A stretch of 64,000 nt of DNA, taken from contig JAYJKW010000106.1 in the NCBI GenBank assembly GCA_035084275.1, positions 806,001 through 870,000 on the forward strand, in the 5' to 3' direction. Positions within the stretch are counted from its first letter, which is position 1; every line of letters starts with the position of its first letter. Position numbers and translations under genes: made by a program. Below, piece by piece: positions 5,066 to 31,803 of this stretch. The stretch is from Hydrolagus colliei. Its lineage: Eukaryota. The notes under the pieces are model-generated. The model made no database searches. It had not been told where the DNA came from and saw nothing but the letters and a program-made list of their open reading frames with translations.

Positions 5066-6852
5066 AGACGCACAAATGCATGAATCGCAACAATGTTTCT
5101 TGTGGATAAAACAATGAAGTGATATGGGAATAACTCGGGGCATGTGGAGCTAGGTTAGAATTTCTGCTTCCCTCACGACTCTTTCCCAACCTCCTGAATC
5201 TCTACCGACCCTCCCCACTACCCTGCACATCTCGTACGCTCACTTCAGCACCTGACTGTTCAGCACCTTAGTACGTCCTCCCAATGTGAAATGCGCTCTA
5301 TGGATATAATATTGTTGTTGAAGTTGTTGTTCAACAACATCCTCAGTTTAAACTCTCATCTGAAAGGCCGCTCCAAAGGCAAAGCAATAAGTCGCCATCA
5401 AAATAATTAAATGACAATTTTGCTAACCAAGAGGCTCGAAGGCACCCAGTGAGCCAGACTGAAAACTTTGCGAATGGTACCGCAGTTCATAATCAGACGC
5501 GTGAAATGTCTGAAAGACTTATTGGGATTGTGTGGAGTGCTAACCAATTCAACATCAGATGTTTAAATTTCAGCAGTAATCAAAGCGACAATATTGGATT
5601 CCGAAGCCTTTGATTCTTCCCATTTCAGCCAAGTTTCTCAATATGTTATTTCAAATAATGTTACTCTAATAATAATCCTGATAATTCGTATCATTCTTTA
5701 TCATTTATTCAAAACGCCCACACCAACGCTCACAGTTTATATCTTGCAGCGATTTCTTTATTGTGAATTTTTGGTTGAAGCGTAAGGATATAACCATATT
5801 CTAGACCAACAAATAGACATTTAGTTCGCCTTCCATCTTCCTACTTGTTGCAGTCATGTATATCCTTGAACAACATATGTACTAAATGACAATAATTCCT
5901 AAAATAAACCTAAGCTCTTTCTTTCAATCAACACTTAGACCTTAAACAGTATCCTTAGGGAATATGTTCCAAAGCTTTACTGTTTGATTATTGGAATAGT
6001 GCTTCTATAGATTCGAAATACAAGGTAAACCTTGCGCACAGTAAAGTGTAAGATTCGTCCATAAAGTGACTGATCAATTGTATCTGTGGGACTGTTGGCC
6101 TGCAAAATTACAAAATCTCCCTGGACTATTTGAAATGGGAGCTGAGATATTGTGGCTTCCGCATGTACAGACAGCCAGTACCACATTTGCACAGCTATTT
6201 CGCAAATGCAATGCATCACACAGACACACAGTCACTCACACACACACATACAGACACAAACACACTCACAGTGAGAGAGAGGGAGAGACGGACAGAGATA
6301 GAGACATTTAGAGATTTGCTCCTTTGCGGCTGATAAGCATATCACAGCCAGGTGTATACAATGTAAGGCAGTATATGGGAATTGTATGGCAGTATTATCC
6401 TTTGTGGAAAGCGTTATCACCTTTAACGTGTTAAACTACAGCAGTGACCTCAGCGCCCTGTACACACTGTGGTCACAAAGGCCTTTGTCCCTCCCAAGCT
6501 GTGCCCAATGCTGTAGGTAATGGGTTCAATGCTGGTGAGTGGCCCCTGTGTAGACAATGTACACACACACTCCAGGCTGGGGAATACTGTGTGTAGGTGG
6601 GGGACATACACTCACATGTGCATCTCTGTGATTGTTTAGATACTTTAACAACAACACATTGCACTGACACACGGTGGCGTGTGTGGTGTTGTGGGCCTGG
6701 GTTTCATCAGGGGATGGACACCCAGCTGCCCCCAAATTACATCATTGGGGTGAATTGCGTAACTCAGGGCAGATAATGTTTTGTTTGCACACGGCACAAA
6801 CTCTCCCAGGATCATGCGGTAAAATTGCTCAAAGGAGCGTTCCCCACTTTCC

Positions 6853-6860
6853 TTTAAATA
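6853..6860 (+). promoter_or_regulatory. TATA-like box of GPCR gene 1
   Basis: TTTAAATA about 90 nt upstream of the ATG at 6945. Similar boxes lie at similar distances before GPCR genes 3 and 4. Confidence 0.4.
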
Positions 6861-6944
6861 AGACCCCGTTTCATGCTCTTGAGAAACACTATTTTTTGCG
6901 TGAGTTGCCTTCTGTAGAAGAGGATTCATTTTGTCTCAGTGAAG

Positions 6945-9458
6945 ATGGCAAATCTGATCATTTGGAGAATTGAAGACATTTACTACCCGATTCTCGCTGC
7001 TGTTGGAATTCCTGGCAAGTGATTTATCCACTTGATTATTTTAGGTGAGTTTGCACTAAAGTCTGTAACCTGACTCAGTTCAGCAATCTCACCTTTCAAT
7101 GAGCAAACGGTAGTTTATCTAATCCTTGAATTTCCCTGTTTGTCCCTTGAAATCTCCCTGCCCCTTTTCGTGATACTGACCGTTGACGATCAAATAAATT
7201 GTGAGGGCTTGAGTTCTTAACTAAGTGCGGTAGCGAGAATAAAAGCGTAGTAACAAATCTCCAGTTTCCTGCTTAAGTATTAGAGATTGTAGTGCGCCAT
7301 TCAAAAGAGAAAATAGATAAGGTGAACTTGATGGCATTTTGATTATGTAATTCTTTTTTGTTACTCCATACAATAATTATTTCACCATTTAGTAACTGTA
7401 TAGTGGTGGTTCGCTATTGTGAACATCTGACTACCGAATTTCCACACAACATCAAGTCGACTCGCTTTACAGTATATTCTGTGAAGAGATTTCAGACGAT
7501 AAGCAGACGATAAGATATTATATCTAACACAAGTTTCCAGACTAATCTCTATTATTCGCCGTTTACCGGCTGAATCGGGGAGGTGTGAGCTTTGGTTCCA
7601 TGAACGAACATTCGACTCCATCAAAAAACAAACAATCACCATTTGTGAAGCGCCTTTCACATGGGAGAGCGTCTGAACACTTACACACAGTGCTGGGTTG
7701 CAAAGAGGATGAATCTCTGTATGACGAATATTTATGTTCAAATTAAAGAATGCTGTGAATGTGGCTAATGGTAGAGAGATTGACTGATCCTCTGTGCAAA
7801 CCCAGCATTGTATGTCAGCACACAGTGAGGGGAGTGACCGGTGTTATCTCAGAAAGTTTGGGGCAGGACACGGCGAGGTATTTGCTCCATGTTAAGATGT
7901 CTTAAACAATAGACAATTTGCTGTATCAAACGCTAGGCATATGTGTTTATTAATTTTGCGTTTCTAAATGACCATTAAATGACCTCTCTCGGTTTATCTC
8001 AGTTTGAACGTATCTCTATTAATATGCCTACTTCTGTAAGTGAACGACGCATATTCTAAATGTGGCTGTATCTCTGCCAGCACCTCTCCCTTTCTCTCTG
8101 TTGGTATGTGTTTGTGTCTATTGTGATGTGTGTTTCTTTCTGAACATGAACGACAGTCTCTGTCTGTTACATTCGTTATCTGTGTTCTTGTCTTTCCCTT
8201 ACTGTGGCGTTTCTTCCGCATTTCGCTCTGTGTATGTTTGTGTTTGTTTATCTCTCCGACTATAGTGTATCCATCTCGCTCATTCTCTTTGTCTGTTTCT
8301 CTACACCACTCTCTCTCCAACGACCGCTCTCGCTCTCTCTCTCTTCCCCGCTCTCTCACTGTCGCTCAGTATATCTATCAATTTCTCCCCCCTCCCCCCC
8401 ACTCCCACCGTCCCACTACCCATTTTCTTTGTCACTTTTCGGTGGGCAGCCGGGTGGTGGACATCGAGACACGTTCAGCAAATTGTAATCTTTACCAATG
8501 AATATTTATGTCTGATCATTTCTTTCTCTTTATCTCTGTAGTCAACCTATTGGCGATTGTTGTCCTGGCTCGAGGGAGGTGCGGTCTCTCCAAGTGCATC
8601 TCCATGTATCTGTTGGCCATGTCAGTGGCTGATCTGACGGTGGTTACTTCCACGGTGATCTTTGCTGTCATTGTACCTATGTACTTCAGGAATCCGTTCG
8701 TGTTCATCACTCCCGTGTGCCGGGTGCTAATTATACTGGAATTTGCAACAAGGGAAACCTCTGTCTGGTTCACTATCGCTTTCACCTTTGATCGATATGT
8801 CGCCATCTGTTGGCAAAAACGAAAAGATAAATATTGCTCCGAAAAAACAGCTGCTGCCGTGATAGCGGGGCTGAGTGTTGTCTTCACTGTGAAAAACATT
8901 CCCTGGTATTTTGCATATGAATCCGAATTCACAATTGACAAGAAACCCTGGGGATGCATTCCTACACCAAACTTTTACACTTCACTCCCATGGATAGTGT
9001 TTGACTGGCTCGGCATCACTGTCACCCCTTTTCTCCCGTATGTTCTGATTTTGCTGCTCAACGCCCTGACTGTCAGCCACATACTGGTGGCCAGTCGAGC
9101 TCGCAGGAGATTGCGGGGACACAGTGATGGGGACAGAACTAGAGGTGAGAGAGACAGTGATCCAGAGATGAAAAACAGGAGGAAATCCATCGTTTTACTG
9201 TTTGCTGTTTCTGCCAATTTTATATTATTATGGATAGCATATATTCTGTTATCATTATACTGGAAGATTACACGCGACTATGTGTACTCGGGGTATAATG
9301 ATCCTAAGTATATTATCTATCGAACTGGCTTCATGTTGCAGATGTTGAGCTGCTGTACAAACACATTTATTTACGCTGTGACTCAGACTAAATTCAGAGA
9401 GGAGATTAAGAAAGTGCTGGCATTTCCTGTTACACTAATTGTGAGATTATTTCATTGA
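6945..9458 (+). CDS. GPR139/GPR142-like class A GPCR, gene 1 (2 exons, 328 aa)
   Basis: Exon 1 6945-7014 (MANLIIWRIEDIYYPILAAVGIP+G) with donor GCAAGT. Acceptor tctgtAG ends at 8541; exon 2 8542-9458 is in frame (VNLLAIVVL...). Seven TM segments, FDRY, NTFIY; resembles GPR139 (YY...GLP|ANIL, LEFSS..SIW.T...DRY.A.C). Confidence 0.92.
7688..7810. mobile_element. internally deleted MITE in the intron of GPCR gene 1
   Basis: Terminal inverted repeats cagtgctgggttgcaaagaggat / atcctctgtgcaaacccagcattg, with TA on the right flank. The longer copy is at 21464-21903. Confidence 0.55.
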
Positions 9459-9559
9459 CAAATTTTCCCACTGCTGTGTGTGTGTCTTTGTGACGCGATA
9501 GACACAGTGACTGGGTCCCTATGAGCCTACCCGTCCCATCATCATGTAGCACGTAATGT

Positions 9560-9860
9560 TGTCTTCTGGAGATCATCAAGTGAATAAAATCAATAATCAT
9601 GAATAAAAGTGCATCACAGAATATTCTGTGTAATGTATTGACTGTTAGTGTAGTTGTGTGCAAATCACAGCAGTGTTGCGTAACGTAGTGACTCACAAAC
9701 AGGTATGGATTCAAAATACCTATTTATAATTGTTTTTCTCGAGCGATTATCATGAATCGTGTGGCGTAAGGAAACTTGCCCAAAGTTGTACCATGTTCAG
9801 AATTGAACCCAGAACTCTCGCTTGTAAGTAGCGTGCTCTAACCACTGAGCTATAAGACAC
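9560..9860 (-). mobile_element. tRNA-headed SINE
   Basis: Minus-strand A box (TAGCTCAGTGGTTAGAGC) and B box (GGTTCAATTC) at ~9800-9855, with a degenerate body. Mirror copy at ~19430-19740. Confidence 0.7.
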
Positions 9861-10069
9861 TACACCTGGTTGTGTTTGTCAGTGCATGTGTCTCTGTTAG
9901 TGCTTGACTCTATGCCACTGCATGTGTCTGCGAAAGCAAAATAGCTGGAGAGACACAGATAGTGTTAGCACCACATGTATGTGAGCACGTAAACCTTTTT
10001 CCCAATGTATGTGTGTGTGAGAGAGAGAGCGAGAGAGAGAGAGGGACTGAGTGCTGTAATATATCTCGT

Positions 10070-10380
10070 TGCAGCGTCCTGTATCTCAGTTCTGGCACTC
10101 GCCATAAAAGCGTGAGACGTGTGTCCGAATCCAGGCAGGTTAGCTCGAAACCTTGGGAACGTTTCCTTACTGCATACGTCGAATTCTAATCCCTAAAAAA
10201 AAACTATAAGAAATTGTTCATTTCAATCAACGACTGTTTGTGGGGCACTGCTGTGCGCAATTGGATGTGCTGTATTGCTCACACATCTAACTTCAATTCA
10301 CTTTACGGTATATTGTTTGAAGCGGTTTGAGACACAGTTTAGTAAATTCCAACAGTGCTCTATCGAACGCAAGGATTAAT
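10070..10380 (+). mobile_element. tRNA-headed SINE with L2-type tail
   Basis: Colinear with the full-length SINE at 12055-12378. Mirror copy at ~18925-19225. Confidence 0.75.
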
Positions 10381-10489
10381 ATGAAGACGTAAAAGTTCGT
10401 TCAGAAGGAGCTAGTTAGACTAACACCGAAAGTAGAAACAGAATCTGGCAGTGGGAGACCGCATGTGGTTTGCTCAGTAAATTGGAGGC

Positions 10490-10790
10490 TTTGATTTGAC
10501 AATAAATATATTTTGCAAAGAACGCTTGCTCTGGGTTGAGTGTGATTTTGTGCGTGTAATACATTCGTTGTTTTGGGGGTTCGTATAATATACAACGAGG
10601 CGTCGATATCAGACAAGTCAACTCACTTCTTACGAATGGAAATCATTTAACCTGTTCGATACTATGACACTATCGTGTTCCCATTCACTCTGATTTTGTT
10701 GGCCAAACTTCTGACTGACAGCCACATTTTCGTGGCAGTAGAGCCCACAAATGATCGTGGGAGTGCGGAAAATAAGACGGGAATAAAGTT
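10490..10790 (+). pseudogene. decayed GPR139-like GPCR remnant (TM4-TM5)
   Basis: Translates with stops and frameshifts to SGLSVILCV*YIRCF, TSYEWKSFNLFDTMT and FPFTLILLAKLLTDSHIFVA. These match AGLSVVFTVKNIPWYF, TSLPWIVFDWLGITVT and LPYVLILLLNALTVSHILVA of gene 1. Confidence 0.75.
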
Positions 10791-11074
10791 TTGAGTGAGT
10801 GAATGTGTGTACAATTGACTGCCGCGTTTCACCCACACATTCCATCGTCCATTCGTGTTACAATATGTTCTTTGATGCGCTTAGAGACATTTTGAGGAAG
10901 TGGTATTGCGCTATATCGATTCTATGTATTAGTATCATTCATATTGTAAACAATTTACCCTTTCCATGGATAGGCCATAGTGCATTTCAGTTCACTGTTG
11001 CTCACGCAACCCTCTCCATGTCGAGGTATAACATTAACTCTTTCCTGATCCTTTGTAAATGAATTCTTAGTCTT

Positions 11075-12700
11075 CTCACTGGGGAACTATATAATTACTG
11101 AGTTCACAGTTTAATTTGCTTAGTGATGTACAAACGTATCACAACAACAAAATTACACTCGCATAGAGTTCATAGATTGAAGCCTTGAGTTACATGTGGA
11201 ATTATGACCTGATCGATTCTAAGCATTAGTATTATCAATAATATTGTCATTTTCCCCATTCCAAGAATGATACAAGTTACCTCTCGTCACTCCCTTCTTC
11301 ACACATCCCACCCCACATAAAGCGATCATTTGAACTCAGTCTTCAAAAATGGTTCGTAACCAACACACTGCGAAATTAATTAAATACTTGATAGACAGTT
11401 TTAATTTACTTGATGATGTACAAACGTATAAATCATATACATTGAACTCTTGAGCTACATGTGGAGTTAGTGATATTCAATAAACCATCATGACAACAAC
11501 TTTCTAACTGTATGTCGTCCACAAAATATGGAGTCAGTTCACTTTACAGTGTATCCTGTCAATCACTACTGATACTTTTCGAAGGCATGAGATGAGCAAC
11601 CACAACAATAATAAAATTACACTTGTATAACGCCTTTCACGTCAGGAGGACGTCCCAATGCGATGGCCAGTTACGGTCTCAAAGCTGAACTGAGGAGAGA
11701 TCGGGTGAGACGGAAGGCGGGGATTAATGATAAGAATCCTTGCATATATTATTGCATTTGATAACTTCTACATGTCTCCGAGCGCTTCACAGACTATGCT
11801 GTACTGTGCCGCAGGAAGGCGTGGAGATACTGGGTAAACATACAAGAACATAAGAATCAGGAGCAGAGGAAGAATATAACTCCATATGTCCCTTATTCGC
11901 CTAATTCCCATATCCTTTAATACCTTGATCGATAATAAATCTATCAATTCCAGGCTTTAATGGGTTCAAGCAATGAGCATCTATAGTTTTCGGGGAAGAG
12001 AATTCCATAAATTAACTTATATCTGAGTGAATAATTGTATTGTCAACTCAGTGCGACCTCCTGTAGCTCATTGGTTAGAACACTTGTCTTGCAAGCTGGG
12101 GAGACCAAGCTGGGGAGACCTGTGTTCGAATCCAGGCATGTCAGCGCGAAACCTTGGGCAGGTTTCCTTACTCCACACACACGCCTAATGATAATCACTC
12201 ACTAAAAAAACCACAATAATAAAATTGGTCATTTCAATCGACGACTATGTGTGCGCAATTCGCTGGCACGATTCGCCCACAAATATATAAAATAAATTCA
12301 CCTTGCAGTATATTCTGTGAAGCGCTTTGGAACGTTGATAAGATATGGAAAGCGCTATATCAAATGCAAGGATTATAAAGTGCTGACCCCAAATTTTAAG
12401 TCTTTGAACCTTGGTTATAGTTTCTCATTCTGCCATATTCAAGAGAATACAGGCCTAGTTTTAATAGACAAACCTGTCTTCACAGCCGAGCTCCTTTATC
12501 CCAGGAACAAACATAGGGGATGATTCGCTTGGGGAATTAATTAATTACTTAATTCAAAGTGTAAATTACTTGGTGATGTACCAACGTATAACAACAATAA
12601 AACTTTACTTGTATAGAGCTCATAGATTGAAGCCTTGAGTTACATGTGGAATTATGACTTGATCGATTCCAAGCATCATTATTATAACTAATATTACTAA
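11075..12700 (+). repeat. three dispersed direct copies of a ~100-170 bp unit (about 11075-11245, 11375-11470, 12530-12700)
   Basis: Shared core gtgatgtacaaacgtat...ttgagttacatgtggaattatga. All three copies are mirrored in the right arm. Confidence 0.75.
12055..12378 (+). mobile_element. full-length tRNA-headed SINE with Deu-like core and L2-derived tail
   Basis: A box TAGCTCATTGG, B box TGTTCGAATCC, core tgtgtgcgcaattcgctg, tail gtgaagcgctttgg...aaagcgctatatcaaatgcaag. Mirror copy at ~16935-17255. Confidence 0.85.
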
Positions 12701-12719
12701 TAGAGAATTAAATAAATAA

Positions 12720-13150
12720 ACTACCATCTGAGTATCAAAAAACAGGGGAAGGACTGAGCCCTAATTTGAAGACTGTGTTCATTTGTTATCATTTCTCCAA
12801 CCAGGGAAAATATTCTGTCACTGCCTACTCTGTCTTGCCCCTTAATTTTCTTATAGGCGACGATAAGATCCCCTATAATACTTCGATATTCTCGAGAACA
12901 TAGGCCTAGATGGCTCATCTTATCGTCATAGCTGAACCCCCTTTACCCATGAACCAAACTTGTTGGGCACCCACTTTAAGTGGAGTAATTCCTTTCATAA
13001 ATAATGAAGCCAAACCTGCACACAATATTCTAGGTGCGTTCTCAGGAAAGGCCTCTTCAGTTGCAGCAAGACTTCCCAACTCTTATATTCTAACGCTTTT
13101 GTAATAAACGCCAACATGCCTTTTGCACAAAATACAAAGATCTGTATTAT
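12720..13150 (-). mobile_element. CR1 LINE RT fragment, degenerate
   Basis: Minus-strand translation GDLIVAYKKIKGQDRV..RIFSLVGE matches CR1 GDLIEVYKIMRGFDRA..KLFPLVGE. Mirror copy at ~16190-16590 (+). Confidence 0.8.
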
Positions 13151-14304
13151 TCTGTGCACAGCAAAACTAAGATTTTCCTCTGCACCTAATTATTTCCCTT
13201 TCCCTTTCCTTCCACATATTTAATGGGGTTTGATACAAGATGGATAGCCAGCAGAACGATTATCCATTAGCCTCGCTTCCTCCCTTGCCTCCTCTAAGGC
13301 CACGAGGGAATGGTTTATTTGAAGGTGGAGTTGGGTTCAGGGAGTTCAGATGTTACCATTATCATTTGCTTGGCCGAAGACATGGCAATGATAAGTGAGG
13401 TGAGCTCTGCAGGAAGCAATATATAAATCGATGTTGTTGTTGTTGTTGTCAATGTCGGCAATGTAATCAACGTACGTGCAAAACAGCGGTGTCATCCCAA
13501 TGTGATGACTGTTCAAATACACGCCAACAAACCAAGAGAGAGAGAGAGAGAGACACAGAGAGAGACACACACACAGACACACATACCTCTGTTTACCAGC
13601 AGTCAGGAGGAAACCGCTTGTTGTTCGGTTAGCGGAACACTAGCCCCCAGCCCCCGCCCCCCCTCACCCCACCCCGCTCCTCCTTGGGTAATAATACCTA
13701 CAAAATAATAATATTTTTGTTCACTCAATCCACGACTGTTGGTTGAATGTCTCTGTGTGCGATTCATTGGCTGCCACTTTTCGCCCACAAAACACACAGT
13801 CACTACACTTTACAGTGTGTCCTGTGAAGCGCTTTGAGACGTCTGTCAAACTTGCAAAATGACAGGATGATGAAAAGGCAAAATTATTATTTTATTGTTC
13901 ATCATTAATACTATTATTGTTGAGTACAATAGTTTACAGTGAAGAGTTATTAATACAATGATTATTATTGATATGTATTAATTTATTAATCAGGAAGTAT
14001 TGGTGATAATTATTATCACTCATCAATCACCGACTTAATGGGTAGAATGATGTGAAGTTTTTGCTCTGGAGCCGGTGTCTAGGTGAGAGTCGCTTTCTGT
14101 GTCTGTCTGTGTCTGCTTGTCTCTCTCACACAGTATTTATACTCTCTCTCCCTCTGTCTCTCTCTCTCTCTCTCTGTCTCTGATGAAACTCTCTCTGCTG
14201 ATGTGTCCTGCTTCCCATTTGTCACTTTCAGAATATCTTGGGTTATGTTATTAGCTCTGGCCCTCCCCTTCTCTCCCTTCCTCCCTCCACCACTGCTATA
14301 CTAT

Positions 14305-14460
14305 GTGTAGAGACACAGTAAAGCTCCCTCTACACTGTGCGCCCATCCACACACCAGGTTAGCGTGAGTGACACAGTAAAGCTCCCTCTATACTGTGCCT
14401 CCGCCGACACTCCTAGGTCAGAGTTACAGACGCAGTAAAGCTCTATCTATGCTGTGCTGT
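14305..14460 (+). repeat. ~59-bp minisatellite, 3 copies, in the palindrome spacer
   Basis: acacagtaaagctccctctacactgtgc repeated at about 14313, 14371 and 14430. Confidence 0.8.
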
Positions 14461-15179
14461 CAGCTGTGGGTGTTAAAGCTGTAATGTGTTGTGTGGTCCA
14501 AGGTGGATCAACAGCAGAAACAGGAGAAAACGTTTCAAGCACTTGGTCCCAACATTGTCAATATTGACAATCTGTGCCTTACAGTCTCTGGGATACGGTA
14601 ACATGGGTATATCCCCCAGAGAGGGGGTGAGAGATGGGAGGGAGTACAATAAAAATAATAATCCGTCCATTTGATGAAGCGCTTTTGACGTCTGATCGAC
14701 ATCTTACAGCGCGTCATAAAATAAACCGTAAAGTGAATTGAAGATGTATTTGTGGGGGAAGCGTGGCAGCCAATTGCGCACAGTCATGTCCGGACAAGCA
14801 ATCGTGGATTAAAATGACCAATTATGTATTAGTGTGGGATATTTGTATTTGATAGCCTCTTCCTCTTTACATATTTGTAAAAGCTCTTGCAGTCTGTCTT
14901 TATATTCCTCGCTAGTTTGCCCTCATATTCAATTTTCTCCCTCTTAATCAATGTTAGCCTCTACTTTGTTGATCCCTAAAGCTCTTCCAATTCTCTGGTT
15001 TACTGCTTATCTTTGCTGTTTTATAGTTTTCACATTTGACTTTACACGTTCCCTAACTGCTCTAGTTAGCCACATTTGGACGAACTATACTGTGGCATTC
15101 TTATTCCTCAATGGAAAACGGAGGTAATATAAAGCTTGGCAGCAGGATAACCGTCGGAGTGGAATTAAGGAGGGCCTCG

Positions 15180-15460
15180 ATAACTCGATTTACAAGCGTG
15201 CCTGTGTGTGTATCCAGGCAGGTCAGGGCGAAAATTTGGCCAAGTTTACTTACACCACATGCCTAATAATAATCCCTCCAATACAAATAAGGCTAATTGG
15301 TCATTTGCATCCACGTTTGTTTGTGGGACACTGCTATGTGCAACTGGCAGCCGCACTTCGTGCAAAAATGTAGTCAATTCACTTTACAGTATATTCTGTG
15401 AAGCGCCTTGTGAGATCGATAATATACGAAAAGCGGTATATCAAAAGCAAAGACTTTAAT
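15180..15460 (+). mobile_element. SINE, same family as 12055-12378
   Basis: Core tgtttgtgggacactgctatgtgcaactggcagccgc and tail aagcggtatatcaaaagcaa. Confidence 0.75.
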
Positions 15461-18400
15461 GTGTTCAAAAGAAAAATATGTTCTTTGTTCTGTCGCTCAA
15501 TCTTCCTTCGGTAACGTAGAAGAGAAACGTGGACATGAGCAACTTAACCAGAGCTAGACACAGGAGAAGCTTGGTGGCGATTTGGTGGCGCTTGCCTGCT
15601 CTATGCAAACCGCCTTGAAATTTGCCTATAAACCGTATGGCCTCTACACGGCAAATACAATCCTGTGACATCTTTCCCACTGAACTCCTGGCAATGGGTG
15701 GGAAGTGGGGAGTAACTAGATCAGATCCGAAAGTTATACGGCAGAAGGTCAGCAAGTGATTGGAAATCTGGAAAACATCTTAGAGGAGTTGGTTTGTTGG
15801 CGTGTATTTGAACAGTTATCACGTTGGGATGACACCGCTGTTTTCCACGTACGTTGATTACATTGCCGACTTTGACAACAACAACAACTTCGAGTTATAT
15901 ATTGGCTCCTGCATAGCTCACATCACTGATCACTGCTCTCCTCATTGACCATGTCTTCGGCCAAGCAAATGATAATGGTAACATCTGAACTCCCTGAACC
16001 CAACTCCACCTTCAAATAAACCATTCTCTCATGGCCTTAGAGGAGGCAAGGGAGGAAGCGAGGCTAATGGATAATCGTTCTGCTGGCTATCCATCTTGGA
16101 TCAAACCCCATTAAATATGTGGAAGGAAAGGGAAAGGGAAATAATTAGGTGAATACAGAAGAATACAGATCTTTGTATTTTGTGCAAAAGGCATGTTGGC
16201 GTTTATTACAAAAGCGTTAGAATATAAGTGTTGGGAAGTCTTGCTGCAACTGAAGAGGCCTTTCCTGAGAACGCACCTAGAATATTGTGTGCAGGTTTGG
16301 CTTCCTTATTTATGAAAGGAATTACTCCCCTTAAAGTGGATGCACAACAAGTTTGGTTCATGGGAAAAGGGGGTTCAGCTGTGACGATAAGATGAGCCAT
16401 CTAGGCCTATGTTCTCGAGAATATCGAAGTATTATAGGGGAACTTATAGTCGCCTATAAGAAAATTAAGGGCTAGGACAGAGTAGGCAGTGGCAGAATAT
16501 TTTTCCTGGTTGGAGAAATGATAACAAATGGGCACAGTCTTCAAATTAGGGGACAGTCCTTCCGCTGTTGTTTGATACTCAGACGGTAGTTCATTTATTT
16601 AATTCTCTATTAATAATATTATTCATAATGATGATGCTTGGAATCGATCAAGTCATAATTCCACATGTAACTCAAGGCTTCAATCTATGAGCTCTATACA
16701 AGTAAAGTTTTATTGTTGTTATACGTTGGTACATCACCAAGTAATTTACACTTTGAATTAAGTAATTAATTAATTCCCCTAGGGAATCATCCCATATGTT
16801 TGTTCCTGGGATAAAGGAGCTCGGCTGTGAAGACAGGTTCGTCTATGAAAACTAGGCCTGCATTCTCTTGAATATGGCAAAATGAGAAACTATAACCAAG
16901 GGTCAAAGCCTTAATATTTGGGGTCAGCACTTTATAATCCTTGCGTTTGATATAGCGCTTTCCATATCTTATCAACGTTCCAAAGCGCTTCACAGAATAT
17001 ACTGCAAGGTGAATTTATTTTATATATTTGTGGGCGAATCGTGCCAGCGAATTGCGCACACAAAGTCGTCGATTGAAATGACCAATTTTATTATTGTGGT
17101 TTTTTTAGTGAGGGATTATCATTATGCGTGTGTGTGGAGTAAGGAAACGTGCCCAAGGTTTCGCCCTGACCTGCCTGGATTCGAACACAGGTCTCCCCAG
17201 CTTGGTCTCCCCAGTTTGCATGACAAGTGTTCTAACCACTGAGCTACAGGAGCTCGCACTGAGTTGACAATACAATTATTCACTCAGATATAGTTTAATT
17301 TATGGAATTGTCTTCCCCAAAAACTATAGATGCTCAGTGCTTCAACCCATTAAAGCCTGGGATTGATAGATTTGTTATCGATCAAGAGATTAAAAGATAT
17401 GGGAATAAGGCGGGACATGTGGAGATATATGCTTCCTCTGCTCCTGATTCTTATGTTCTTGTATGTTTACCCAGTATCTCCATGCGTTCCTGCAGCACAG
17501 GACAGCCTAGACTGTGAAGCGCTCGGAGACATGTAGAAGTTATCAAATGCAATAAAATATGCGTGGATTCTTATCATTAATCCCCGCCTTCCGTCTCACC
17601 TCATCTCTCCTCAGTTCAACTTTGAGACAGTAACTGGCCATCGCATTGGGACGTCCTCCAGAAGTGAAAGGCGTTATACAAGTGTAATTTTATTATTATT
17701 GTGGTTGCTCATCTCATGCCTTCGAAAAGTATCAGTAGTGATTGACAGGATACACTGAAAAGTGAACTCACTCCATATTGTGTGGACGACATGCAGTTAG
17801 AAAGTTGTTGTCATGATGGTTTATTGAATATCACTAACTCCACATGTAGCTCAAGTGTTCAATGTATATGCTTTATACGTTTCTGCATCATCAACTAAAT
17901 TAATACTGTCAATCAAGTATTTAATTAATTTCGCAGTGTGTTGGTTACGAACCATTTTTGACGACTGAGTTCAAATGATCGCTTTATGTGGGGTGGGATG
18001 TGTGAAGAAGAGTGTGACGAGAGGTAACTTGTTTATTCTTGGAATGGGGAAAATGACAATATTATTGATAATAATGCTTAGGATCGATCACGTCATAATT
18101 CGACATGTAACTCAAGGCTTCGATCTATGAACTCTATGCGAGTGTAATTTTGTTGTTGTGATATGTTTGTACATCACTAAGCAAATTAAACTGTGAACTC
18201 AGTAATTAATTAGTTCCCCAGTGAGTTGTAAAATCAGAATTATGTTACAAACTATAAGGAAAGAGTTAATGTTATAGATCGACATGGAGAGGGTTGTGTG
18301 AGGAACAGTGACCTGAAATGCACTATGGCTTATCCTTGGAGAGGGTAAATTGTTAACAACATGAATAATAGTAATACATAGAATCGATATAGAGCCGTAC

Positions 18401-18509
18401 CACTTCATCAAAATGTCTCAAAGCGCATCAAAGAATATATTGTAACACGAATGGACGATGGAATGTGTGGGTGAAACGCGGCAGGAAATTGTGCACACAT
18501 TCACTAACT

Positions 18510-18810
18510 CAAACCTTTATTCCCGTCTTATTTTCCGCACTCCCACCATCATTTGTGGGCTCTACTGCCACGAAAATGTGGCTGACGGTTAGACAGTTGG
18601 CCAGCAAAATCAGAATGAATGGGAGCCGCCGGAGTGTCATTATATCGAACAGGTTAAATGATTCCTATGCGTAAGAAATGAGGTGACTTGTGTTATATCA
18701 ACACCTTATTGTATTTTGTACAAACCCCCCCCCAAAACAGCGAATGTATTACACGCACAAAATCATATTCAAACCAGAGCAAGCGTTCTTTGTAAAATAT
18801 ATTTATTGTC
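18510..18810 (-). pseudogene. decayed GPR139-like GPCR remnant (mirror copy)
   Basis: Minus strand reads SYA*ESFNLFDIMTLRRLPFILILLANCLTVSHIFVA, a clear TM5 homolog with an in-frame stop. Confidence 0.78.
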
Positions 18811-19817
18811 AAATCAAAGCCTCCAATTCAATGAGCAAACTACATCCGGTCTCCCACTGCCAGATTCTGTGTCTACTTTCGGTGTTAGTCTAATTAGCTC
18901 ATTCTGAACGAATGTTTACGTCTTAATAATAATCTTTGCGTTTGATAGAGCACTTTGGGAATCTTCGAAACTGTGTCACAAACCGCTTCAAACAATATAC
19001 CGTGAAGTGAATTGAAGGTGGGCAATACAGGACATCCAATTGCGCACAGCAGTGCCCAACAAACCGTCGTTGATTGAAACGAACAATTTCTTATTGGGTT
19101 TTTTTAGGGATTAGGATTCGACGTATGCAGTAAGGAAACTTTCAAAAGGTTTCGCGCTAACCTGCCTGGATTCGGACACACGTCTCAAGCTTTTATGGCG
19201 AGTGCCAGAACTGAGATACTGGACTCTGTAAAGAGATATATTACAGCAATCAGTCCCTCTCTCTCTGTCTTTCTCTCACACACATACATGGAGAAAAAGG
19301 ATTACGCGCTCACATACATGTGGTGCTAACACTCTCTCTGTCTCTCCAGCTATTTTGCTTTCACAGACACATGCAGTGGCATAGAGTCAAGCACTAACAG
19401 AGACATATGCACTGACAAACACAACCAGGTGTAGTGTCTTATAGCTCAGTGGTTAGAGCACGCTCCTTACAAGCGAGACATCTGGGTTCAATTCTGGGCA
19501 GGGTTCAACTTTGGGCAAGTTTCCTGACACCACACGATTCATGATAATCGCTCGAGAAAAACAATTATAAATAGGTATTTTGAATCCATACCTGTTTGTG
19601 AGTCACTACGGTACGCAACACTGCTGTGCTTTGCACACAACTACACAGTCAATACATTACACAGAATATTCTGTGATGCAGTTTTATTCATGATTATTGA
19701 TTTTATTCACTTGATGATCTCCAGAAGACAACATTAAGTGCTACTTGATGAAGGGACGGGCAGGCTGCTAGGGACCCCATCACTGTGTCTATCGCGTCAC
19801 AAAGACACAAACATTTG

Positions 19818-22613
19818 TCAATCAAATAATCTCACAATTAGAGCGACAGGAAATGCCAGCCCTTTCTTAGTCTCCTCTCTGAATTTAGTCTGAGTCACAG
19901 CGTAAATAAATGTGTTTGTACAGCAGCTCAAGAACTGCAACATGAAGCCAGTTCGCCAGATAATATATTTAGGATCATTAGACCCCGAGAACCAAAGGTC
20001 GTTTGTAATCTTCCAGTATAGGAAATTTAGAGTAAATGTCATCCATAATAATATAAAATTGGCAGAAACAGCAAACAGTAAAACGATGGATTTCCTCCTG
20101 TTTTTCATCTCTGGATCACTGTCTCTCTCACCTCTAGTTCTGTCCCCATCACTGTGTCCCCGCAATCTCCTGCGGGCTCGACTGACCACCAGTATGTGTC
20201 TGACAGTCAGGGCGTTGAGCAGCAAAATCAGAACATACGGGAGAAAAGGGGTTACAGTGACGCTGAGCCAGTCAAACACTGTCCATGGGAGTGAAATGTA
20301 ATAGTTTGGTATATGAATGCATCCCCAGGGTGTCTTGTCAATTGTGATTTCGGATTCAAATGCAAAATACCAGGGAATGTTTTTCAAAGTGAAGACAACA
20401 CTCAGCCCCGCTATCACTGCAGATGCTGTTTTTTCGGTGCAATATTTATCTTTGAGTTTTTGGCAACAGATGGCGACATATCGATCAAAGGTGAAAGCGA
20501 TAGTGAGCCAGACAGAGCATTCCCTTGTTGAAAATTCCAGTATACTTAGCACCCGGCACACGGGAGTGATGAGCACGAACGGATTCCTGAAGTACACAGG
20601 AACAATGTACGAAAAAATCACCGTGACAATAACCACCGTCAGATCAGCCACTGACATGGCCAACAGATACATGGAGATGCACTTGGAGAGACCGCACCTC
20701 CCTCGAGCCAGTACAACAATCGCCAATAGGTTGACTACAGAGACAAAGAGAAAGAAAAGATCAGACATAAATATTCATTGGTAAAGATTACAATTTGCTG
20801 AACGTGTCTCGATGTCCACCACCCGGCTGCCCACCGAAAAGTGCCAACGAAAGTGGGTAGTGGGACGGTGGGAGTGGGGGGGAGAGGGGAGAAAGTGATA
20901 GATATACTGAGCGTCAGTGAGAGAGCGGGGAAGAGAGAGAGAGAGAGAGAGAGTGGTCGTTGGAGAGAGAGTTGGGTAGAGAAACAGACAAAGAGAATGA
21001 GCGAGTTGGATACACTAAAGTGGGATAGATAAACATACACAAGCATACACACCGGGACATGCGGAAGAATCGCCACAGGAGGCGAAAGACACAAGAACAC
21101 AGATAATGAAAGTCACAGACAGAGACTGTCGCTCATGTTCAGAGAGAAACACACATAACAGTAGATGCAAAGACACACCGACAGACAGAAAGGGAGATGT
21201 GCTGGCAGATTCAGAAAATGAGTCGTTCAGTTCAAAAGTAGGCATACTAATACAGATACTCACAAACTGAGATACACCGAGATACATAAACGTCATTGAG
21301 AAACGGAAAATAATTAAATAAATAAATAATTAAATAATCTAGCGTTTGATACAGCAAATTGTCTATTTTTCAAGACATCTCAAAATGCAGCAAGTATCTC
21401 GCCGTGTCCTGCACAAACTTTCTGAGATAACACCGGTCACCCACCTCACTGTGTGCTTACGTACAATGCTGTGTTTGCACAGAGGATCAATCAATCGTTC
21501 CTCTACCAATTGCCGCATTCAATGAATTATTTAGTTTGAACAAAATAAGTCATCAGAGGCAATCGAATACATACATTTGACTCAACTGACCCCACTGCTG
21601 CATTTAAATACAATGCAGTGTTTGCATTAAACCTGTCTCATCCTTTGAGAGATTTGGACGACCACAGTTGGCGTTGTATCAAAAGCACGAATCGTTGCAA
21701 TTGAGTCAATGATCTTCAACCAATATCGGTCTGTCTGTACAACGTGCCAATGTAAAATGCCTTTGCAAACAGTACCTTTGGTTAGAGGAGTCAATTGGAT
21801 ATATTCGATTGTATCTGATAATATTTATTTGTTGAAATTAAAGAATTATTTGAATGCGGCAAATGGGAGAGGGTAGATTGATACTGTTTGCTACCCAGCA
21901 TCGTATGGAAATACACAAACGCTCCCCTGTTTCAAAGGTGATTGTTTATTTGTTGATGCAGTTTCAATTGCGAATATGGAACCAAAGCTCACAACTCCCT
22001 GATTCAGCCGGTAAACTGCGACCAATAGAGATTAGTCTGGAAACCTGCATTTGATATAACATCGTATAATATCTTTATGTCTCCTCGAATCGCTTCACGG
22101 AATATACTGTAAAGCGAATCGACTTCATTAGGTGTGGAAATTCGGGAGTCAGATGTTCACAACAGCCAACGACCACTATAAGGTAACTAAATGGCTAAAT
22201 GTTTTTTATATTGCATCGTTTAAAAATTTGCATAATCAAAATTCCATCGGCTTCACATGATCTATTTTCTCCTTTGAATGACTCCCTGCAATCTCTAATA
22301 CCTAAGCAGGCAAACTGGAGATTTGTTACTAAGGTTTTATTCTTGCTACCGCACGTAGTTAAGAACTCACGTCCTCACAATTTGTTTGATCATCAGTGGT
22401 CATTATCCTGAAATAGGAAACAGGGAATTTCACGGATTACACAAAGCACAATTTGCCAATTGAAAGGTGAGATTGCTAAACTGAGTCAGGCTACAAACTT
22501 TACTGTAGACTAACCTAAATACTGAATTCGATAAATCACTTGCCAGGAATTCCAACAGCAACGAGAATCGGGAAGTAAATGTCTTCAATTCTCCACATTA
22601 TCGGATAGGCCAT
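19818..22613 (-). CDS. GPR139/GPR142-like class A GPCR, gene 2 (2 exons, 328 aa)
   Basis: Exon 1 22613-22544 (MAYPIMWRIEDIYFPILVAVGIP+G) with donor GCAAGT. Exon 2 20734-19818 follows ctgtAG. 44 of 305 exon-2 residues differ from gene 1 (manual count). Confidence 0.92.
21464..21903. mobile_element. TA-flanked MITE (Tc1/mariner-type ends), ~440 bp
   Basis: TA|caatgctgtgtttgcacagaggatcaatc ... gattgatactgtttgctacccagcatcg|TA; imperfect TIRs of about 85 bp. Confidence 0.6.
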
Positions 22614-25600
22614 TTTCACGGAGACAAAATGAATCCTCTTCTACAAAAGGCAGCTCACGCCACAAACAGTGGTTCTCAAGAGCATAAAACGGGGTCTTAC
22701 TTAAAGGAAAGTGGGGAACTCTCATTTGAGCAATTTTGCAGCAAAATCCTGGGAGAGTGTGAGCCGTGTGCAAACAAAACATTATCTGCCCTGAGTTACG
22801 CAATTCACCCAATGATGTAATTTGGGGGCAGCTGGGTGTCCATCCCATGATGAAACCCAGGCCCACAACACCACACATGCCACCTGGTGTCAGTGCAATG
22901 TGTTGTTGTTAAAGTATCTGAACCATCAGAGAGATGCACATGTGAGTGTGTGTCCCCCACTTACACACAGTATTCCCCAGCCTGGAGTGTGTGTACATTG
23001 TCTACACAGGGGCCACTCAACAGCATTGAACCCATTACCTACAGCATTGGGCACAGCTTGGGAGGGACAAAGGCCTTTGTGACCACAGTGTGTACAGGGC
23101 GCTGAGGTCACTGCTGTAGTTTAACCCGTTAAAGGTGATAACGCTTTCCACAAAGGATAATGCTGCCATACAATTCCCACATACTGCCTTACATTGTCTA
23201 CACCTGGCTGTGAAATGCTTATCAGCCACAAAGGAGTAAAATATTCATGGGTTAAATATATTGCACGGTATACGCGTGTGTCTCTCACTTTTTGTGTATG
23301 TGTTTGTGTGTGTGTGTCTCCCTCTTTCTCCCTGACATCTGTGACTCTGTCGCTGTCTCTAATCCTTTCTCTCCCTCTCTCTATCCCTCTCTCTCATTTT
23401 TTGTATCTGTTGCTGTAGACACGGGTGTTTGCATCTGTCCCTCTGCATCTGTCCCTGTGTGTGCGTCTGTGTTTGTCTCTATTTGCCTTTTTAGGTGTAT
23501 GTGTGTCTCCCTCTCTGAACATTTCTCTCTCTAACTGTATCTAACCTTGTCTGTCTCTCCCTCTCTCTCACTGTGACTGTGTGTGTGTGTGTATGTGTTT
23601 CTGTGTGAAGCATTCCGTTTAGTAAGTAGCTGTTAAATTGAGTTTTCTGGCTATACATGCGGATCTAACAATATCCCAGCTCAGAACTCAAATAGTGCCG
23701 GGAGATACTGTAAATTTCTTGGCCACGTTTCTCACAGACGCAATTGCTCAGTCATGTTATGGATGAATCTCGCACTTTACTGTGCGCAAAACATCTCTTA
23801 TATTTCTAATCTAGAGTCGCAATTTCTAGTGATAAAACTAAAGCTGTGGAACATATTCCCTCGGAGACTGATGAAGCACTAAGTTTTAATCAAGAAAAAA
23901 AAAGGTTAGATTTGTTTTAGGAATTTTTGTAACACAATATATGTTGTTCGCGGTCATATATTGTTGCAAGAAGTAAGAAGGTGGAATGTGAACGAAATGA
24001 CTGTCGATCCAGAGTTTCGTTATATCTTTATGCTTCAACCAACAATTCACAACACAGAAATCGCTGTAGGATATATTCTGTGAGCATTGGTGTGGGCGTT
24101 TTGAAGAGATGATAAGGAACCATCAAAATTGTAATGATGTTTTATCAGTAGATCATTATTTCGAATAACACATTGAGAATGTTGGTAGAAATGGGAAGAT
24201 TCAAAGGCTTCGTACTCCAGTTGTGGCGCTGCAACTACTACTGAAATTTAAACATCTAATGGTGAATTGGTTACCACTCCACACAATCTCAATATGACTT
24301 TCAGTCATTTCACGCGTCTGGTTTTGATCTGCGGTACCATTTGCAAAATTGCAGTGTGGCTCATTAGGTGCACGCGAGACTCTTAGTAAAAACAAATTGT
24401 GATTTCATTGTTTTGCTGGGGACGTGATTCATTGCTGGGGGTGCGGCCTTTTAGATGAGAGTTTAAACTACGATTGTTCTTCAACAAAAACTTCCAACAA
24501 AAGAAACCTCTGTAGAGCGCCTTTGCGATTGGGAGGACATCTAATGTCGCTGAGCAGTCAGGTCCTGAACCGAACATGCGAGAGATGCAGGATAGTGGGG
24601 AGGGTCGGGGTAGAATTAAGATGCGTGAGACAGTTGTGATCGATATATCCGTGGACCTTTGTAACCTAAAGCATGTAGAACTTGTTTTCGCCAGCTTCTT
24701 GTATCACTCATGCAGAAACATGTCGTCATGTTTTCCACATTTCAAAGGCTACCAAGTGTGAAGGGTAACGTCCAAATTAAATTGCAAATATAACTGTTTT
24801 CGCTAAAATATTGAGAGAGAATGAGTTATCCACAAACATTGAAGAATGACAATCACCGGAATTGAAAGTGCATTCCCTCCTGGAGGCGCAAACCTTCGTT
24901 ACATAATTGTTACAAGTGTGACTGCCCTCTGCCTGCCTCTCCGGCTCACCCTTTCGCTCACTCACTGCCTGCCTGTTCATTCACTGCTCCCTGACTGCCT
25001 GCCAGACTCACTCATTCGCTGCTCGTCTCTCTCGCTGCCGGCCTAACTCACTACCAGGTCCCAGCACCGCCGTGATCCTATCCACCATTGGCTAACAACG
25101 TATATTAGCGATCAAAGCAACGTTAGACGGGGTTCGCCTATAATAAAAATAATAATGCTGCCCCCCCCCCCCCCCCCCCTCCCCCTCAACTGCCCAACCT
25201 ATGGTACACGCGCCACAATGGAGGCGAGCTCCAAGGTTCAGAAACCACTGCAGTTCTCTCTCTCACGGCAGGGTAGCGAGACCCGCATTCACACCAACCT
25301 TCCCCTACGTCTCTCCCCTTGCCGTCTTTGCCCCCTTTCTCCCTGGTCCCACTTCATCGACTGTTTGTGGACAACTGCTGCGCGCAAATTGGCTGCCGCG
25401 TTTCTCCCACAGATAAACAGTCAATGTTTCTACTCTTGTTCCCCCTATGACGACCACTCGCACATGCTGTGGTCTATATAGCTTTCTCCCCCCTTTCGAC
25501 GCTATTTTCAGCTCTCTATATCGACGTACCGTGGCACGCTACTGCACTCTGTGAAGCGCTTTGAGACGTCGATAATATGTGGAAAGCGCTATATAAATGT

Positions 25601-26139: not shown

Positions 26140-27056
26140 TCATAGAATCATAGAATTTTACGGCACAAAAGGAGGCCATTCGGCCCATCTAGTCTGTGCC
26201 GGCTCTTTGAAAAGAGCGATTCAATCCCACTGTCCTGCCCGCTCCCCATAGCCTAATAGACCAGTTCTCCCTAAATAAAGATCTAATTCCCTTTTAAAAG
26301 TTGTTATCGAATCAGCCTCCACCACCTTTTCAGGCAATGCATTCCAGAATCGAACAACTCGCTGAGTGAAAAAAATTCTCCTCAGCTCCCCTCTACTGCG
26401 CCTTGAAACTATTTTAAATCTGTGACCACGAGTCACAGATTCACCCACGAGTGGAAATAGTTTTTCTCTATTTGCCCTGTCGAAACCCCTCATGATCTTA
26501 TAAACCTCTATTAGGTCTCCCCTCAATCTTCTCTGCTCCAGAGAGAATAACACTAGCCTATCTAGCCTCTCCTCATAGCTGAAGTCCCTCAATCCTGGCA
26601 CCATCCTAGTAAATCTTCGTTGTACCCTTTCCAAAGCCTTCACATCCTTTCTGTAGTGTGGTGACCAGAATTGAACACAGTATTCCAGCTGAGGCCTCAC
26701 CAAAGTCCTATAGAGGTTAGTCAGCACTTCCTGACTTTTGTACTCTATACCCCTATTTATAAAGCCTAGTATCCCATATGCCTTCTTAACAGCCTTGTCC
26801 ACCTGTCCTGCCACCTTCAACGAGTCACTAACACAAATCCCCAGGTCGCTCTGTTCCTTTACACCATTTAAAATTGTACTATCTAGCCTACATTGCCTCC
26901 CTTCATTTCTTCTCCCAAAATGCATCACCTCACACTTCTCTGCATTAAACTTCATCTGCCATGTGTCTGCCCACTTTACCAATTTGTCTATATCCTCTTG
27001 CAGATGGCTACTATCCTCCTCACTGTTTACTATTCTCCCTAACTTAGTGTCATCTG
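26140..27056 (-). mobile_element. young 5'-truncated CR1 LINE
   Basis: Uninterrupted 253-aa RT C-terminal ORF at 26221-26982 (WQMKFNAEKCEVMHFG...RPQLEYCVQFWSP), truncated at the DDTK motif. The 3' tail is (TTCTATGA)n at ~26140-26156. Confidence 0.95.
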
Positions 27057-27248
27057 AACTTAGTGTTGTCAGAAATTTACGCTGGAATATCTGATTTGTA
27101 CACTCTCATCTACATTTAATGACGGTAGCGTTTGGATCAAATCAACTCAAATATTCATTGATATTCATTGATATCCTGAAGGTCGCTACATGATTAATAG
27201 CCGCTGATGCCACGTTATCGATCTCATTCTACTTCAGTTATCCTCTAT

Positions 27249-31290: not shown

Positions 31291-31803
31291 NNNNNNNNNN
31301 NNNNNNNNNNNNNNNNNNNNNNNNNNNNNNNNNNNNNNNNNNNNNNNNNNNNNNNNNNNNNNNNNNNNNNNNNNNNNNNNNNNNNNNNNNNNNNNNNNNN
31401 NNNNNNNNNNNNNNNNNNNNNNNNNNNNNNNNNNNNNNNNNNNNNNNNNNNNNNNNNNNNNNNNNNNNNNNNNNNNNNNNNNNNNNNNNNNNNNNNNNNN
31501 NNNNNNNNNNTGTATGTGTNNNNNNNNNNNNNNNNNNNNNNNNNNNNNNNNNNNNNNNNNNNNNNNNNNNNNNNNNNNNNNNNNNNNNNNNNNNNNNNNN
31601 NNNNNNNNNNNNNNNNNNNNNNNNNNNNNNNNNNNNNNNNNNNNNNNNNNNNNNNNNNNNNNNNNNNNNNNNNNNNNNNNNNNNNNNNNNNNNNNNNNNN
31701 NNNNNNNNNNNNNNNNNNNNNNNNNNNNNNNNNNNNNNNNNNNNNNNNNNNNNNNNNNNNNNNNNNNNNNNNNNNNNNNNNNNNNNNNNNNNNNNNNNNN
31801 NNN
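31291..31803. other. assembly gaps (N runs) inside a GT-rich tandem repeat
   Basis: Two N runs separated by 9 called bases. Confidence 1.

Follow-up and report, generated by a model that had tools for sequence, protein, structure and literature searches.

We analyzed a 64,000-nucleotide stretch of Hydrolagus colliei DNA (NCBI GenBank assembly GCA_035084275.1, contig JAYJKW010000106.1, positions 806,001 to 870,000 of the forward strand; hereafter the window, whose own coordinates are used throughout), in which a palindrome carries one intact G-protein-coupled receptor (GPCR) gene in each arm. The divergence between the arms changes in steps, both reading frames are intact, and the amino-acid differences between the two receptors are concentrated on their extracellular side. 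The palindrome is probably an old inverted duplicate in which episodic arm-to-arm gene conversion stopped at the edges and at large insertions or deletions (indels) and in which selection maintained the distinctness of the two receptors on their ligand side.

The self-BLAST of the window linked positions 5205-13535 with 24608-15789 through three collinear minus-strand blocks (5205-6314 with 24608-23528 at 75.8% identity, 6315-7716 with 23240-21875 at 85.1%, and 7715-13535 with 21558-15789 at 90.7%). The left arm (5205..13535, forward strand) comprises 8331 bp and the right arm (15789..24608, reverse strand) 8820 bp, and a unique spacer of 2253 bp (13536..15788) lies between them. These results confirmed the palindrome of ~19.4 kb, with arms of ~8.3 and ~8.8 kb and convergent receptor genes, that a preliminary description of the sequence had reported; its count of 3 differences in 13201-13380 was exact. 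The spacer starts with a (GA)/(CA) microsatellite, contains repeats resembling short interspersed nuclear elements (SINEs), and is without any open reading frame of at least 120 amino acids (aa). Homology ends outside both outer edges (flank score of 23 vs a shuffle maximum of 28 in 30 shuffles), and no N lies inside the duplication, the only Ns of the window being at 31291-31803. After columns three or fewer positions from a gap and the unalignable zones 6217-6314 and 7716-7734 were dropped, 738 of 7754 gap-free sites differed between the arms, an overall identity of 90.5%. The longest identical run is 149 bp; therefore, exchange between the arms is either slow or has stopped. A search of 4000-26000 for structured RNAs yielded no Rfam match at gathering scores. 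By eye, a GC-rich, CCAAT-containing, promoter-like stretch at 24900-25120 (reverse strand) adjoins the right arm and is directed into it.

In the left arm (forward strand), exon 1 of the receptor gene (6945..7014; 23 codons plus one base) is followed by an intron of 1527 bp (7015..8541) and by exon 2 (8542..9458). In the right arm (reverse strand), exon 1 lies at 22544..22613 and is followed by an intron of 1809 bp (20735..22543) and exon 2 (19818..20734). Both introns are GC-AG introns in phase 1, and each spliced gene encodes an open 328-aa receptor; exon 2 contains no indel between the arms. The assignment to class A GPCRs was indicated by Pfam 7tm_1 matches (E-values of 5e-25 and 7e-21), class A motifs, and class A fold matches, and the predicted model of exon 2 is a helical bundle with a predicted local distance difference test (pLDDT) score of 83. 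The GC splice donor occurs in both arm genes (7015 and 22543), and GT stands at the same intron position in two other family genes of the window.

Stepwise divergence between the arms

Uniform divergence along the arms was rejected (chi-square of 344, 37 degrees of freedom), which bears out the non-uniformity that the preliminary description had held against a single duplication. Change-point fitting of the arm alignment delimited five segments in left-arm coordinates: 5205-6334 (outermost, 78.2% identity), 6335-6789 (an island, 96.6%), 6790-8262 (84.8%), 8263-11102 (92.2%), and 11103-13532 (innermost, 95.2%; 112 of 2354 sites differ). The log-likelihood of the five segments was -2300, compared with -2322 for the best monotone fit (13 levels), -2357 for a linear gradient, and -2438 for uniform divergence. 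A smooth gradient was rejected, with the logistic-linear and isotonic fits both poorer than the five steps. With a lighter change-point penalty, the coding region was divided further: 9109-9228 became a tract of 100% identity and 9229-9288 a divergence peak with an identity of 70%.

The indel density followed the same steps (14.8, 4.4, 12.2, 4.3, and 2.9 indels/kb), and of the two large length differences between the arms, one lies at the step from 78% to 97% and the other within the 85% segment. The first is a CA/GA microsatellite zone (6217..6314), where the right arm is longer by ~260 bases (within 23241-23582). The second involves an element of the right intron (21449..21917) whose inverted ends of ~140 bp are 77% alike and of which ~315 bp are absent from the left arm at 7716-7734; by appearance it resembles a miniature inverted-repeat transposable element partly deleted in the left arm.

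The outer block, apparently the oldest (5205..6216, forward strand; partner 23600-24608), has an identity of 78.0% on gap-free columns (confidence interval, 75.1-80.6; 199 of 903 sites differ). The outer ~1 kb is thus the least similar part, as had been described, at an identity slightly above the 70-75% estimated by eye. Its first ~125 bp correspond to the 3' terminal part of an interspersed repeat, further copies of which lie elsewhere in the window. We rejected the possibility that the outer block represents two independent transposon copies because the dispersed repeat accounts for no more of the block than this and inverted termini are lacking.

The island (6335..6789, forward strand, 455 bp; partner 22769-23220; 15 of 440 sites differ) sits 7 kb from the spacer and precedes the start codon by 155-610 bp. 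In identity it matches the innermost segment (p = 0.26), and it appeared in none of 20,000 simulations under the best monotone fit. It is a putative promoter or non-coding exon. By eye, a splice-donor-like site was seen at 6535 in the island and acceptor-like sites at 6912-6940 before the start codon, which suggests a non-coding first exon. That the island is a promoter common to the receptor family was rejected, given that the sequences preceding the two remaining receptor genes of the window contained no match. A weak same-strand similarity was also observed between 5467-5631 in the outer block and 6322-6505 in the island (nhmmer E-value of 5e-4; above the shuffle maximum in three of four pairings), which may stem from an old tandem duplication of an upstream element.

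At the other end of the arm, identity drops from 98.3% to 91.9% in the last 150 bp next to the spacer (p = 0.0015). The receptor region had been described as clearly more diverged; the coding exon (92.5%) is, however, on par with the adjoining 3' non-coding DNA (92.8% and 90.7%), and the low part is the intron (84.0% over 7015-8200). Toward the spacer, the identity of the 3' non-coding DNA runs through 92.8%, 90.7%, 94.2%, 95.5%, and 96.5%, and over 40 windows along the arm an inward trend was detected (Spearman rho of -0.63). Block permutation with blocks of 500-1500 gave p values of 0.0004-0.003 for the whole arm, 0.02-0.06 with the outer block removed, and 0.07-0.24 from 8263 inward for all four block sizes. 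The trend is carried mainly by the outer kilobase and the intron. Accordingly, of the centre-to-edge gradient and the decay with distance that the preliminary description had proposed, the inward trend over the whole arm stands, and the profile itself is stepwise and non-monotone (78%, 97%, 85%, 92%, and 95%), with a decay that weakens once the outer block is set aside.

Repeat-derived tracts provided a view of DNA that does not encode the receptor. In the inner arm, two such tracts differ between the arms by 1.8% and 3.2% (the latter a SINE-like tract at 12062-12376), a tract at 10078-10378 differs by 8.5%, and the intron element differs by 13.5% at one end and by 26.4% at the other. Because these tracts vary from 2% to 26%, constraint on the gene is inadequate as an explanation. 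An internal direct repeat is present in both arms, with copy 1 (166 bp) at 11080..11245 and its partner at 18058-18220, and copy 2 at 12530..12695, which holds the 149-bp identical run, and its partner at 16615-16779. Its two copies are distinguished by 25 of 166 sites, below the 199 of 903 in the outer block (p = 0.048), and each of the 24 informative columns places like-positioned copies of the two arms together (L1R1|L2R2), with none for either alternative. Provided that the age of the outer block is that of the duplication, the internal repeat is younger and was carried across; these counts are weakly suggestive of copying between the arms after the first duplication.

Divergence between the arms is patchy in unconstrained DNA and higher at the edges and near large indels, as expected for duplicates in concerted evolution, and arm-to-arm exchange after the duplication, as previously proposed, is supported by non-coding tracts that differ by 2-3% in one place and 14-26% in another, by an indel density that tracks the steps, and by the younger internal repeat in both arms. 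A GPR139-like receptor gene unit would have been duplicated inversely, tail to tail, around the 2.25-kb spacer, and non-reciprocal conversion would then have rewritten the arms piecemeal, with tracts of different ages appearing as steps. Conversion would have failed first where pairing was interrupted, namely at the outer edge, past the point where the microsatellite differs in length (6217-6314), around the 315-bp intron indel, and over the final 150 bp beside the spacer. An additional, mild preference for the inner arm is possible and not required.

Differences between the two receptors

The arm proteins differ at 49 of 328 residues, with a nonsynonymous divergence (dN) of 0.085 and a synonymous divergence (dS) of 0.072. 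We divided the receptor into extracellular and inner sides by motif-anchored helix halves, which agreed with the predicted helices. The results revealed that amino-acid differences affect 38 of the 156 extracellular-side codons vs 11 of the 172 inner-side codons (p = 5e-6), and this contrast persisted in family-variable columns (23/64 vs 4/39, p = 0.005). If replacement sites had changed as fast as the nearby non-coding DNA (7.9%), 26.7 differences would be expected on the extracellular side and 29.0 on the inner side; the 38 observed on the former are an excess (p = 0.014), and the 11 on the latter a deficit. Both copies have changed evenly (13 vs 12 polarized changes, 19 unassigned). Synonymous divergence (~17 of 243 sites) is lower than that of the intron (159 of 993; p = 0.0002).

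An identical tract of 134 bp (9102..9235, forward strand) spans intracellular loop 3 and the inner part of transmembrane helix (TM) 6, and adjoining it is a divergence peak (9229..9288, forward strand; 18 of 60 sites) over outer TM6 and extracellular loop 3. Of the 30 positions that line the ligand cavity in class A receptors, 11 are changed, as against 17 of the 177 remaining TM codons; the changed positions include 3.29, 5.42, 5.43, 6.51, 6.52, 6.55, 7.35, and 7.43.

Conversion together with purifying selection would keep the G-protein side alike, and selection would have kept or driven the differences on the ligand side. The ligand-facing differences look held by selection, in which case the ligands of the two receptors are probably different. 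The pair would then constitute a natural experiment that marks specificity-setting pocket positions in a very large orphan receptor family. Exchange between the arms had also been proposed as a local engine for receptor diversification. Conversion removes differences, and this proposal is therefore unsupported: exchange erased differences, and the remaining ones are ligand-facing and look selected. Chimeric alleles may conceivably be arising in the population.

Alternative explanations and known systems

The alternatives were compared by toy simulations with arbitrary parameters (mean divergence calibrated to 0.095, total age of 0.26, 3000 runs per model). It is possible, if rather unlikely, that the conversion rate falls with distance from the spacer through intrachromatid fold-back pairing, the island being a stray tract or a constrained promoter; this explanation and patchy conversion differ in degree only. 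The inward trend and the 3' non-coding identity that climbs toward the spacer, with one dip, agree with it, and distance-decay models produced a rho of -0.63 or lower in 1227-1674 runs vs 45-394 for position-independent models (45 with 500-bp tracts). Nevertheless, position-independent tracts of 1.5-3 kb also gave this trend in 249-394 runs (8-13%), the steps fall at large indels, and the trend loses significance from 8263 inward when patchiness is allowed for. We then counted runs that showed the full pattern, defined as the trend, the old outer block, the young inner segment, and the island reversal; such runs were infrequent under every model. The comparison weakly favors distance decay, by a factor of approximately 4 to 6 for 1.5-kb tracts and by a larger one for 500-bp tracts, for what is a single case, and a single palindrome is insufficient for a rule.

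Recurrent crossover inversion of the spacer, with ordinary allelic crossover homogenizing nested inner strata, would account for the one-sided trend and the sharp inner boundary, and nested models reached the observed rho or lower in 1728 of 3000 runs. We consider this explanation improbable. Pure nesting yielded the island-then-intron reversal, and with it the full pattern, in 0 of 3000 runs, so that inversion between the arms alone, one of the two processes initially proposed, failed to produce the island; short conversions must be added (25 of 3000). In human palindrome P6, conversions moreover outnumber inversions 56 to 3 (PMC3723533).

Very improbable is an origin without conversion, in which one or two duplications occurred, a younger one landing on an old diverged copy now seen as the outer block, and constraint shaped the rest. 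The abrupt step from 78% to 97% and the location of the outer edge in the end of an interspersed repeat are consistent with it, whereas the dispersed repeat covers only ~125 bp of the outer block, the 84% intron stands between segments of 97% and 92%, and the repeat-derived tracts span 2% to 26%. That the palindrome is an assembly artefact of two haplotypes or fold-back reads is scarcely credible in view of the 9.5% substitution divergence, the 15-22% blocks, the unique spacer, the unrelated outer flanks, the gap-free region, and the intact frames with an indel-free exon 2.

Several results weigh against patchy conversion with selection on the ligand side. The full pattern appeared in only 2-17 of 3000 runs under position-independent conversion, vs 29-90 under distance decay. 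Edge decay predicts a U shape, and the inner edge is affected for 150 bp only. The island could be partly due to promoter constraint. The data represent one haplotype of one species, in which no conversion event was directly seen or polarized. The arms show no GC excess (39-41%, vs 43% in the spacer). The extracellular excess of replacements loses significance without codons 254-293 (p = 0.15), and a dN/dS above 1 is non-significant against synonymous sites (1.62 on the extracellular side, p = 0.25; 2.82 in the pocket, p = 0.51). When the pocket register is moved by up to 3, 5-9 differences remain, and the signal is therefore mostly one of the outer half of the helices. Finally, the 294 transitions (ts) and 444 transversions (tv) between the arms give an unexplained ts/tv ratio of 0.66.

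With respect to base composition, the left flank has a GC content of 41% and the island 48%. The check for GC-biased change suggested in the preliminary description gave no sign of enrichment in the arms, the direction of changes being unpolarized.

The low ts/tv ratio is a testable oddity raised by the pair. In non-coding segments above 90% identity, 101 ts and 172 tv were counted (0.59), a ratio not distinguishable from random substitution (p = 0.20), compared with 0.72-0.73 in the outer block and intron; this difference is in the direction predicted if the transition deficit were stronger in more-converted segments. As controls, ten dispersed-repeat pairs gave 291 ts and 273 tv (a ratio of 1.07, p = 9e-5), and in six tandem repeats 26 of each were counted (p = 0.09); these controls are imperfect because retroelement copies bring their own errors. 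Clustered multi-base changes were rejected as the cause, with isolated mismatches being low as well (205 ts, 304 tv). CpG transitions are raised only 1.4-fold to 2-fold between the arms. The observed/expected CpG ratio per 2 kb across the window is 0.4-0.9, which is high for a vertebrate. The simplest explanation would be that the ts/tv ratio of this animal is low throughout its genome; in the epaulette shark, all 4 of the 4 validated new mutations were transitions (PMC10587355). A joint explanation, which we regard as doubtful, is that cartilaginous fishes have a large GPR139-like repertoire that diversifies at the ligand pocket in the style of chemosensory or immune genes, that exchange in this pair is strongest near the centre, and that heteroduplex repair clears mismatches of the transition type better than those of the transversion type, leaving a near-random ts/tv ratio of ~0.6 between the arms. 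If this were true, the ratio would be a marker of past conversion readable from a single genome.

The pair adds an instance, from a receptor family that has been little studied, to an already known way in which duplicates evolve; in its architecture, it is an ordinary and well-preserved case of duplicates escaping conversion. Human RHD and RHCE similarly form a tail-to-tail inverted pair with a conversion mosaic, a selected divergent exon, and differences at functional sites, in much larger genes. In duplicated blocks of Drosophila, failing conversion raises divergence at the edges and coding peaks arise from selection (Osada and Innan 2008, PMC2588116); the edges likewise diverge more here, and the coding peak may likewise be due to selection. 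Those blocks were compared through orthologues of several species and are roughly U-shaped, whereas the present single haplotype has a long outer decay, a 150-bp inner decay, and an upstream island (PMC2588116). Insertions and large indels are known to end conversion, and a divergence peak in opsin exon 5 has been reviewed (Fawcett and Innan 2011, PMC3924837). The human red/green opsins are, as the present pair probably is, neighboring GPCR duplicates that undergo conversion and keep ligand-determining differences, but their introns are more alike than the exon, whereas here the intron is the most diverged and the pair is inverted tail to tail (PMC3924837). Conversion between inverted neighbors has also been described in Caenorhabditis (PMC3966223).

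Mammalian X and Y palindromes resemble the present structure in having gene-bearing inverted arms longer than 8 kb, a unique spacer, and, here probably, arm-to-arm conversion. X palindromes are defined by arms above 8 kb, a spacer below 500 kb, and an identity above 99% (candidates, above 95%) (PMC8327919), their arms are GC-rich (PMC8981503), and in palindrome P6 the mean length of conversion tracts is 2 kb or more and inversions occur rarely (PMC3723533). The arm and spacer lengths found here fall within this definition, and the identity (90.5%; 95.2% and 96.6% in the best segments, vs above 99%) and the GC content of the arms do not conform to this type (PMC8327919). The preliminary description had called decay with distance a known property of sex-chromosome palindromes; this does not hold for the sources consulted, in which the arms are more than 99% identical and the passages retrieved by keyword (PMC8327919, PMC8981503, PMC8600007, and PMC3723533) mention no distance decay. 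The mouse autosomal palindromic duplication SD12A1 is also inverted, with ~93% identity and some blocks of higher identity, but it is of megabase scale, broadly uniform in identity, without evidence of conversion, and with a ts/tv ratio of 1.13 vs 0.66 here (PMC13688818). No closer precedent appeared in the accessible parts of PMC13688818, PMC5398296, and the preprint 10.64898/2026.09.05.749481, and a literature search on identity gradients in inverted pairs and on cartilaginous-fish palindromes, in which subscription journals were mostly not covered, returned no direct precedent.

Receptor family and other features of the window

The arm proteins are nested in a chondrichthyan "GPR139-like" family, and their identity to numerous proteins from sharks, rays, and Callorhinchus is 50-65%. 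Among the best 120 of 1793 relatives found by protein search, 119 bear cartilaginous-fish names, mostly labelled probable GPR139, and the nearest is a Callorhinchus protein at 65% identity. In a quick tree of 60 sequences, which included 56 of these 120 best matches, the arm proteins are sisters (SH-aLRT of 100), with no species among the taxa known to share the duplication, and they fall in a clade with five Callorhinchus proteins (SH-aLRT of 100). Human GPR139 (PDB 7VUG/9M42) is the top solved-structure match by sequence, a weak one (E-value of 2.9e-8), and in the fold search it ranked 31st among class A receptors and was not singled out. The window contains four intact family genes. Because of the weak sequence match, the fold rank, and the multicopy state, the arm genes are not GPR139 orthologues, and a true orthologue was rejected as a candidate identity; the family label implies neither orthology nor ligand. 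GPR139/142 have been linked to protostome MIP receptors (PMC8514136). The literature search, mostly outside subscription journals, found no dedicated study of this family in sharks or other cartilaginous fish, and a keyword check of shark genome papers found no mention of it.

Two further two-exon family genes are intact and arranged head to head, with 45-47% identity to the left-arm protein. The first lies on the reverse strand (exon 1 at about 49092-49001, exon 2 at 45711-44819) and the second on the forward strand (exon 1 at about 58619-58697, exon 2 at 60005-60901); the limits of both first exons are approximate. A decayed receptor-gene fragment of the same family, covering the TM4-TM5 region and containing stops and frameshifts, is present at 10534..10753 in the left arm (forward strand), with its counterpart at 18550..18704 in the right arm (reverse strand). 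Between the arms it differs at 32 of 218 sites, and its flanks at 102 of 1352 (post hoc p = 0.001), perhaps reflecting exchange with other family members.

Outside the palindrome, a 294-codon frame at 26221-27105 (reverse strand) without a Pfam match resembles the end of a CR1-type long interspersed nuclear element protein, and a C2H2 zinc-finger array of ~8 units of 84 bp was observed at 35003-35734 (forward strand).

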